From positions 1-14,262 of IMG/VR virus record IMGVR_UViG_2695420747_000011: a DNA stretch of 14,262 nt, one strand, 5' to 3'. Below are positions 6,102-7,064 of this stretch, piece after piece (position 1 is the first letter of the stretch; every line of letters starts with the position of its first letter). This stretch comes from a virus (lineage: Duplodnaviria > Heunggongvirae > Uroviricota > Caudoviricetes). A program made the position numbers and the translations under genes. The notes beneath the pieces were generated by a model. That model saw only the letters and a list, made by a program, of their open reading frames with translations, searched no databases and was not told the origin of the DNA.

Positions 6102-7064
6102 TTACCCCCTGAAGCCCGGCGGAATTTCAGTGTCCGGTTCAGAAATGTGATTCACGCAACGCTGCGCAGGCGAACGCCCCAGGCGGATAACCAGTTCATC
6201 CCATTTTTCCCGGAGTTTTGCCGGACTCATGATGTTTTTTACCCAGAACGAATCCCGCTGGAGACGCCCAAACATTTCACAAATTTGTCTGTGAGTTCTG
6301 CCATCCAGCATCCGCATTGTGCGAACGTCATTGGCCCATGCTGTCCAGTTGGGTTCTTTCGGTCTAGTGATCTCGCCATCATAGCTGGCCGCCTGCTCGT
6401 AAAGACTCACGATTCGTCCCCAGATCCACTGTGCGCACACCAAATCTTCCTGACTTCCCCACTGGCGTTTTTTCGCACTGAACACAACCGCGTCAGGGTG
6501 TCGGGTTAAAAAATCCTGTTCAGCCGTCTGCGGGTCCGGTTGCGAAGCGTCCGGACAAGAAGATCTTTTATCTGACGGATCAGGTTTTAATACTGACGGA
6601 TCGGGGTCAATCATCGCCCCCCTAATCGGCAGTTTTTTATCAACAGTTGATCCATCAAAATTTGACGGGTCAACCGTTGAGGGGTCAATATTTGACGGGT
6701 CAACTGTTAACGGGTCATTTTTTGCCGGGCTAATTTTTCTTTTCGGTTTATATGACTCACGCGCCGCCGCCGCAGCTGCTTCGAGTTTTTCCACATTAAG
6801 CCGATAGATATTGCTTACATTACGCCCACCGACCTTACGCTCTTCCTTCGTCAGCCAGCCCTCTTTCGCCAGTTCTGCAATAGCCGATTTCACTGTGGAT
6901 TCACTTCTTGCACCGATCTGACGCCGGATAGTTTCAATGGCAGGCCATGACACGCCCTCGTCATTGCTGTAGTCTGCAAGACGGGCCATAACCGCCACCC
7001 TGGATAAGATCATGCCGGTGAAGGCGCACCCTTCCCAGACAAGACCATGAAGCTTGCTGCTCAT
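6102..7064 (-). CDS. replication initiator (lambda O-like replisome organiser) with iteron-encoding linker
   Basis: N-terminal winged-helix-like domain (...GVSWPAIETIRRQIGARSESTVKSAIAELAKEGWL...). Pro/Asp/Ser-rich linker (DPLTVDPSNIDPSTVDPSNFDGSTVD) is encoded by the iteron DNA. Start placed at ATG 7064; the track start 7079 is GTG. Position directly after the cro/YdaT genes. Confidence 0.7.
   Translation of the reverse strand: MSSKLHGLVWEGCAFTGMILSRVAVMARLADYSNDEGVSWPAIETIRRQIGARSESTVKSAIAELAKEGWLTKEERKVGGRNVSNIYRLNVEKLEAAAAAARESYKPKRKISPAKNDPLTVDPSNIDPSTVDPSNFDGSTVDKKLPIRGAMIDPDPSVLKPDPSDKRSSCPDASQPDPQTAEQDFLTRHPDAVVFSAKKRQWGSQEDLVCAQWIWGRIVSLYEQAASYDGEITRPKEPNWTAWANDVRTMRMLDGRTHRQICEMFGRLQRDSFWVKNIMSPAKLREKWDELVIRLGRSPAQRCVNHISEPDTEIPPGFRG
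6647..6720. repeat. iterons: five direct repeats with 15-bp period, consensus TTGAcGGGTCAAy (candidate origin)
   Basis: Units start at 6647, 6662, 6677, 6692 and 6707 (ttgatccatcaaaa / ttgacgggtcaacc / ttgaggggtcaata / ttgacgggtcaact / ttaacgggtcattt). Each has internal TTGAC...GTCAA dyad symmetry. A degenerate copy sits near 6602 and an AT-rich stretch at 6717-6760. The arrangement is inside the O-like coding sequence, as for lambda ori. Confidence 0.65.

Follow-up and report, generated by a model that had tools for sequence, protein, structure and literature searches.

Candidate replication origin of 15-bp repeats within the O-like initiator gene of an Escherichia coli lambdoid prophage

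Introduction

In lambdoid phages the replication origin is situated midway along gene O and combines iterons with an AT-rich tract (PMC7466680), as in oriLambda, whose four iterons cover residues 117–145 of the O protein right before its conserved C-terminal domain, and in the six-iteron origins of the Stx phages. Here we describe a 14,262-bp stretch of DNA (positions 1 to 14,262 of the IMG/VR record IMGVR_UViG_2695420747_000011, hereafter the window), which represents the early region of a Qin/e14-like lambdoid prophage from E. coli, and in particular a tandem array of 15-bp repeats inside its O-like replication initiator gene which, together with two or three boxes downstream of it, is likely to be the replication origin of the prophage in the lambda layout. 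Several features of the locus are those of the lambda and Stx origins (PMC7466680): the dyad-symmetric direct repeats are located mid-gene and encode a linker between an N-terminal, presumably DNA-binding domain and a homologous C-terminal domain, the gene follows cro-like and CII-like genes as O does in lambda, the number of repeats is variable, and the N-terminal domain appears to be exchanged together with the repeats as one specificity module.

The replication modules designated "O-only", such as those of phages LLS and mEp460, contain a single O homologue and no helicase or loader gene, and were found in 34 of 314 lambdoid phages in a 2025 survey, which calls their replication "not yet understood", reports that they are unstudied experimentally and gives no account of their origins or of a DnaT-like tail (Genome Res 2025, PMC12315714). 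The minus-strand early-right operon of the window (199–7724) is a module of this type: no P, DnaC or DnaB gene was found in the window, and the downstream neighbour of the initiator gene is a DUF977/Ren-like gene.

Tandem repeats near conserved Dam sites, as in the window, also characterize plasmid and phage P1 iteron origins (RepA/pi type, with GATC repeats in P1 oriR), where the repeats bind the initiator. Iterons of that type are 17–22 bp long, follow each other approximately in phase with the DNA helix and are not part of the rep coding sequence, and their initiators have two winged-helix domains. The repeats of the window, with a period of 15 bp and a core of 12–14 bp, depart from this pattern, as they do from the lambda iterons of 18 bp at 20–24-bp spacing.

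Results

The repeat array

The array includes six units with the core dyad TTGAC-NN-GTCAA, the last two of which are degenerate. Repeat detection and pattern matches both recovered the five units described in a preliminary description made from the sequence alone, which have the plus-strand form TTGAyssrTCAA and follow each other at exactly 15-bp spacing (6647, 6662, 6677, 6692 and 6707), and a sixth, degenerate unit (TTGCCGGGCTAA) is located at 6722. The TTGAC/GTCAA dyad had been attributed to every unit, but only two of them, at 6662 and 6692, are the exact 12-mer TTGACGGGTCAA; the 6677 unit has a mismatch in one arm, the 6647 unit possesses a different perfect dyad (TTGATCCATCAA) and the 6707 unit is degenerate. 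The same DNA can also be read as a row of 5-bp half-sites (TTGAC or its complement GTCAA) in alternating orientation, separated by 2- and 3-bp spacers. Tandem Repeats Finder scored the array at 72 with a period of 15 and at 89–101 with a period of 30.

Downstream of the array in the direction of the gene there are dispersed boxes, two of which (6572 and 6593) have the form CTGACGGATCrGG, that is GAT CCG TCA on the coding strand, and which correspond to the most DNA-conserved block of the family. The degenerate copy previously placed near 6602 does exist as a site, although it is a half-site (GGGGTCAA, 6602–6609). Nine TGA-N4-TCA sites are present in the 14.3-kb window, five of them within the 130 bp from 6573 to 6702, where about 0.04 would be expected (Poisson P of about 1e-9), and repeat detection revealed no other repeat cluster in the window. 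Among E. coli alleles with about 90% identity (P0001–P0018) the protein consists of 320, 315, 310 or 305 aa, corresponding to five, four, three or two units of 15 bp, and two E. coli alleles are shorter by 7 aa (21 bp), one downstream box having been lost.

It was also considered that the TTGAC units might be −35 elements of internal promoters, which was dropped after a promoter and terminator scan of 6000–7800 detected nothing. The Rfam scan assigned no RNA family to the region of the initiator gene.

The initiator protein

The repeats are indeed located inside coding sequence as the linker of the initiator, as had been proposed, with the correction that the gene (6102–7064) is on the minus strand. 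On that strand the units read xTT GAC CCG TCA Axx and encode the pentapeptides DPLTV, DPSNI, DPSTV, DPSNF and DGSTV, and the array and the further boxes all fall within residues 116–164. An in-frame GTG is present upstream of the ATG, at 7079, and residues 6–325 of the 325-aa open reading frame (ORF) starting there, which equal residues 1–320 of the annotated protein, match phrog_391, "replication initiation O-like" (E 2e-115); the RefSeq name is "HTH domain-containing protein". Copies with 100% identity are present in many E. coli chromosomes, and out of 5,426 complete E. coli genomes 1,514 have a DNA match over at least 80% of the gene, with a partial match in 3,265.

The N-terminal domain belongs to Pfam HTH_36 (PF13730, 27.8 bits against a cutoff of 25) and not, as in lambda, to Phage_rep_O (PF04492), for which no match to the initiator was obtained at E ≤ 0.01 whereas lambda O itself scores 123 bits. 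In the AlphaFold2 model of this domain helices are predicted at residues 43–50 and 55–67 and a wing at 71–75/85–89, and a recognition helix can be seen; Foldseek gave weak matches (best E 1.7e-3) to winged helices of the MarR, PadR and ArsR type, which would support a generic winged-helix assignment but nothing more specific. Residues 107–174 have a predicted local distance difference test (pLDDT) score below 50, and since the linker peptide is thus predicted to be disordered, the DNA would be free to carry a second code.

The C-terminal domain is helical and confidently modeled (pLDDT about 90). Its residues 182–300 align with residues 171–277 of lambda O (BLASTP, 39% identity, E 5e-26), and tblastn hits were also obtained in lambda, phi80 and Stx phages. 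Due to this homology the repeats can be said to sit at the position of the lambda iterons. Thus, of the lambda ori arrangement assumed at the outset, the candidate iterons in an O-like linker were confirmed in position, while the AT-rich element (see below) and an N-terminal domain of the lambda O family were not.

Conservation of the repeats among relatives

The comparison set consisted of 85 genes, namely 80 loci from different Enterobacterales species with 54–78% identity in the N-terminal domain, gathered by scanning GTDB genomes with an alignment of this domain, and five phage genomes. A scan of IMG/VR with the whole initiator protein returned only copies with 99–100% identity, which were of no use for this purpose. 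The repeats, which had been taken for iterons to be compared with those of related phages, are kept in these relatives, at least two TGA-N4-TCA boxes being present in 81 of the 85 genes. Their density in the linker, 11.7 per kb, is 25 times that found elsewhere in these genes (0.47 per kb); 327 out of 329 boxes share one codon phase, and 153 pairs of neighbouring boxes are spaced at 15 bp. The family consensus of the repeat unit is AAnnnTTGAcccgTCAA.

A low-complexity Asp/Pro/Ser linker might in principle have arisen by replication slippage, with the regularity of the DNA being a by-product of unit duplication and homogenisation; the range from two to five units among the alleles with about 90% identity and the predicted disorder of the encoded peptide are both in line with this. 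The choice of codons makes such an explanation highly improbable. Across genera in which the synonymous sites of the N-terminal domain are scrambled, the two serines of a unit are fixed as TCA and TCT: the box serine is encoded by TCA in 85% of cases (n = 546), compared to 11% in the N-terminal domain and 19% in the C-terminal parts, and the other serine of the majority-type unit by TCT in 71%, compared to 8–9% elsewhere. The codon between the half-sites is free to change its amino acid (Pro 118, Ala 110, Thr 41, Gly 25, Arg 15, others) while the flanking nucleotides are fixed. Boxes present in a single copy likewise speak against slippage: in the orthologous first box of the majority-type relatives (G-G-D-P-S-V) the codons are GAT in 74 of 74, CCG in 68 of 74, TCA in 60 of 60 serines and GTA in 72 of 72 valines, and in a consensus of about 60 nt around this box third codon positions are near-invariant, whereas at conserved four-fold-degenerate residues of the N-terminal domain, about 150 bp away, the mean share of the top codon is only 0.48. 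The relatives from Edwardsiella have two kinds of unit in alternation, IDPP (TTGACCCC) and VEG[S/L], and in the latter GGGGTyAA is the same motif inverted, so the change from Pro to Gly alters the peptide and keeps the DNA motif on the opposite strand. As far as sequence comparison can tell, the linker boxes are evidently under selection at the DNA level and not for their peptide, and we cannot reconcile their patterns with either peptide selection or simple slippage.

Association of the repeats with the N-terminal domain

The N-terminal domain and the boxes are found joined to at least three types of C-terminal domain (lambda-O-like, Phg_2220_C and others), which were assigned by Pfam on representatives instead of single-linkage clustering, as the latter merged nearly all of the C-terminal domains and was uninformative. 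The boxes are present despite varied surroundings, the flanking genes of the relatives falling into nine clusters upstream and 22 downstream, and in the E. coli mosaics P0030, P0016, P0019 and P0070 the crossovers are located right after the boxes. The initiator gene of phage mEp460 shares 86% nucleotide identity with that of the window over the C-terminal half, including the same DnaT-like tail, but the similarity stops at about window position 6570, beyond which mEp460 has a different N-terminal domain and, at the same place in the linker, five repeats of 23–24 bp (CATCrGGTCAAAATG..., record L084, 2699–2828), probably constituting that phage's own origin. Edno5 likewise carries 24-bp repeats (ATCCCAAAATTGGGAT) at the same linker position, and for each type of N-terminal domain examined a separate array was seen there.

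Within the family the flanks of the boxes follow the subgroup of the N-terminal domain, being TTGA...TCAA in the subgroup that includes the window and the Erwinia, Mixta and Edwardsiella copies and cTGA...TCAAAA, with boxes TCTGACGCATCAAAA, in the majority subgroup. Records deposited as phage genomes (PhiR49_1, Kp4872-1 and YeP3) keep the boxes. The boxes and the N-terminal domain thus behave, at the level of sequence, like cognate sites and their putative DNA-binding domain.

A truncated member of the family seems to be present in E. coli K-12, where oweE of the cryptic prophage e14 lies right after ymfL-ymfM, the place at which PhiR49_1 has an initiator of this family, and, judging by this position, looks like an N-terminal remnant of it. 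The oweE pseudogene (record L170, 3671–3904) has 234 nt, or 78 codons, and ends short of the linker, so the repeats are missing; ymfN, treated here together with oweE, is described in RefSeq as a chimeric replication protein/terminase.

Enterobacterial-type copies of the initiator were also encountered in records titled Elizabethkingia phage EKP1, Martelella alba, Vagococcus sp. and Chryseobacterium sp. (L087, L107, L113 and L120), for which contamination or mislabelling is possible.

Candidate site of DNA opening

The segment at 6717–6760, originally suggested as an AT-rich unwinding element next to the repeats, was rejected because its composition is ordinary: it has 66% AT, in a sequence where 9% of windows of 40 nt reach 65% or more, while the lambda tract has 80–83% AT. 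It is also on the side of the array opposite to that of lambda and is not conserved in the relatives. On the C-terminal side (about 6555–6640) the locally AT-richest segments are 6633–6662 (77% AT) and 6563–6592 (70% AT). Since BLASTP aligns residue 182 of the initiator with residue 171 of lambda O, and the lambda tract is at residues 150–159, the position of 6563–6592 corresponds to that of the lambda AT tract, which makes this segment the preferred, albeit weak, candidate for the unwinding site.

The boxes might, alternatively, be sites at which the N-terminal domain regulates its own gene or the copy number, as a roadblock, as an operator within the gene or by handcuffing, with the true origin located elsewhere. 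The sites do lie within the initiator's own transcription unit, and a convincing AT-rich unwinding element adjacent to them was not found. Plasmid iterons, moreover, can have dual roles. Nevertheless, we consider this unlikely, given that the position equals that of oriLambda relative to the homologous C-terminal domain, that the window has no second repeat cluster which could serve instead, and that an array at this place for each N-domain type examined is the rule for lambdoid origins (PMC7466680).

The prophage of the window also differs from lambda in having two invariant GATC sites. Four GATC (Dam) sites between 6562 and 6652 form the densest 100-nt GATC window in the 14 kb, and two of them correspond to sites that almost all family members with the motif share (75 and 67 of about 75 genes), usually 24 bp apart; linkers contain 9.6 GATC sites per kb, compared to 2.8 per kb for the remainder of the genes. 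The single DnaA box that matches the consensus (TTTTCCACA), at 6787–6795 on the plus strand, about 50 bp from the array, is uninformative because it lies inside a conserved protein motif, and a box with one mismatch at 6637–6645 (plus strand) abuts the array. The sequence at 6561–6573 on the plus strand (GATCTTTTATCTG) resembles the oriC 13-mer consensus GATCTnTTnTTTT; its conservation does not extend to the majority subgroup, and the likeness could be due to chance.

The two family-invariant GATC sites, the DnaA box and the location of the crossovers between N- and C-terminal modules right after the conserved block raise the question of whether the conserved DNA is read by something other than the initiator (SeqA or Dam at GATC, DnaA or another phage protein) or is a homology patch for the exchange of C-terminal modules. 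This seems quite unlikely, as the boxes track the type of N-terminal domain and not the neighbouring genes, the window shows no enrichment of DnaA boxes (33 found, 30 expected), and fixed flanks around a free centre are typical of a protein site and not of a homology patch. A role of the GATC sites would be compatible with the function of the region as an origin and would add to it.

Helicase loading

The initiator differs from lambda O in an additional C-terminal tail, in which 15 of 21 residues are identical to the extreme C-terminus of E. coli DnaT. A full-length match to DnaT was not obtained: against the NCBIfam DnaT model (NF002770, PRK02854) the initiator scores 16.7 bits, below the cutoff of 201, and only model positions 159–179 match its last 21 residues. 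A GFR[G/S/T] tail like that of DnaT is present in 49 of the 85 relatives, across different types of C-terminal domain, which is why automatic pipelines call some of them "primosomal protein I". Six relatives end with W..xL instead, including those in which P is next downstream. Among relatives with this N-terminal domain and repeats, some, such as L090, have a homologue of lambda P (PF06992, E 3e-58) after the initiator gene, and another (L141) has a gene for a DnaC-like ATPase there, a replication context in line with an origin. The correlation between tail and loader is not absolute, one record having a DnaT-like tail and then a DnaC-like gene.

The literature consulted stated no function for the C-terminal end of DnaT (some 20 residues), so recruitment of the host loader through the tail is put forward as a hypothesis. 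The course of initiation may be pictured as follows. The N-terminal winged-helix domain would bind the TTGAC/GTCAA half-sites, whose length of 5 bp and alternating 2- and 3-bp spacers give the 15-bp period, and the bound protein would form a nucleoprotein complex. The DNA would open beside the array, most probably on its C-terminal side, where the conserved GATC boxes and the AT-richer DNA are located. Since P, DnaC and DnaB are not encoded by the prophage, the helicase machinery of the host would then be recruited, through the C-terminal domain of lambda O type and the tail that resembles DnaT. In its most specific form, that of a one-gene O-only replicon with close-packed 5-bp half-sites (centres 7–8 bp apart), opening at a Dam-methylatable block with the two invariant GATC sites, and a DnaT tail directing the host primosome or DnaB–DnaC loading in place of a phage loader, the scheme is tentative and rather doubtful.

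A search of plasmids gave hits mostly to prophages in large replicons. One record (L171, NZ_CP148542.1) is a 16-kb circular "plasmid" with prophage early and lysis genes only, in which an identical N-terminal domain and array have a DnaC-like gene after them. This record, which may represent either a lambda-dv-like replicon or an artefact of assembly, is unusable as evidence of autonomous replication because its initiator and ydaT genes look frameshifted.

Gene neighbourhood

The plus strand of the window contains genes for an integrase, an excisionase, a large exonuclease and a cI-like repressor, as well as the DicF RNA. On the minus strand, the order is cro-like, YdaT/CII-like, the initiator gene, DUF977/Ren-like, DNA methyltransferase, hok/sok and DUF968. 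The DUF977/Ren-like gene looks frameshifted, because two ORFs match two halves of the family, and it is intact in NZ_CP083512 (L001, 6550–6960). The coordinates of the features are listed in Table 1.

Table 1 Features of the initiator gene and its surroundings; positions are counted from the first base of the window
Feature	Position	Strand	Remarks
O-like replication initiator gene	6102–7064	−	320 aa from ATG at 7064, stop codon included
N-terminal winged helix-turn-helix domain, presumed iteron binder	6753–7064	−	aa 1–104; Pfam HTH_36
Linker-coding region	6534–6752	−	aa 105–177; holds all repeats; predicted disordered
C-terminal domain	6174–6533	−	aa 178–297; homologous to lambda O C-terminal domain
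C-terminal tail AQRCVNHISEPDTEIPPGFRG	6105–6167	−	like last 21 residues of E. coli DnaT
Tandem array, six 15-bp units, candidate iterons	6647–6734		units at 6647, 6662, 6677, 6692, 6707, 6722
Dispersed boxes, downstream in the direction of the gene	6572–6610		CTGACGGATCAGG at 6572; CTGACGGATCGGG at 6593; half-site GGGGTCAA at 6602–6609
Four GATC (Dam) sites	6562–6652		6562, 6578, 6599, 6649
AT-richer segment between GATC boxes	6563–6592		70% AT, AT scan
Segment earlier described as AT-rich tract	6717–6760		encodes RESYKPKRKISPAKN; 66% AT; N-terminal side of array
DUF977/Ren-like gene	5638–6061	−	two overlapping ORFs, 5786–6061 and 5638–5961
YdaT/CII-like gene	7087–7512	−	
cro-like gene	7509–7724	−	
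hok/sok toxin-antitoxin locus	1705–2030	−	Hok by Pfam; sok RNA by Rfam, 117 bits
DicF small RNA	9789–9840	+	77 bits

Discussion

The position of the repeats relative to a C-terminal domain with homology to its lambda O counterpart, their conservation as DNA and their association with one type of N-terminal domain make it likely that the repeats and the downstream boxes are the origin of this prophage. Several points weigh against this. All the support for the origin and for binding is comparative. A tract like that of lambda, about 40 bp with about 80% AT on the C-terminal side, is absent, the best 40-nt windows having 70% AT compared to 80% in lambda, and there is no AT-rich tract conserved across the family. 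Half-site centres only 7–8 bp apart with a 15-bp period would be unusual among known iterons and also for winged-helix proteins that bind as dimers. Close E. coli alleles have only two units, which suggests that the length of the array is not critical. Finally, the conserved block coincides with the site of C-terminal domain exchange, and part of the DNA conservation could come from recombination and not from binding.

An origin inside the initiator gene is a known and expected arrangement, while for this common type of initiator it is undescribed in the literature searched: no description of this origin type was found, the search having covered sources other than Weigel and Seitz 2006, the likeliest review. 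What differs from lambda is the winged-helix family of the N-terminal domain, the 15-bp packing of the repeats, the conserved GATC sites, the DnaT-like tail and the lack of a loader gene.

In practical terms the finding may be used for the annotation of origins in prophages and points to a possible compact replicon consisting of one gene and about 180 bp. The linker also provides a clean case of overlapping code, in which the DNA of a disordered protein segment also spells out what appears to be a DNA-binding array, detectable from codon choice alone. For the O-only lambdoid modules the locus offers a concrete and testable candidate pair of origin and initiator.

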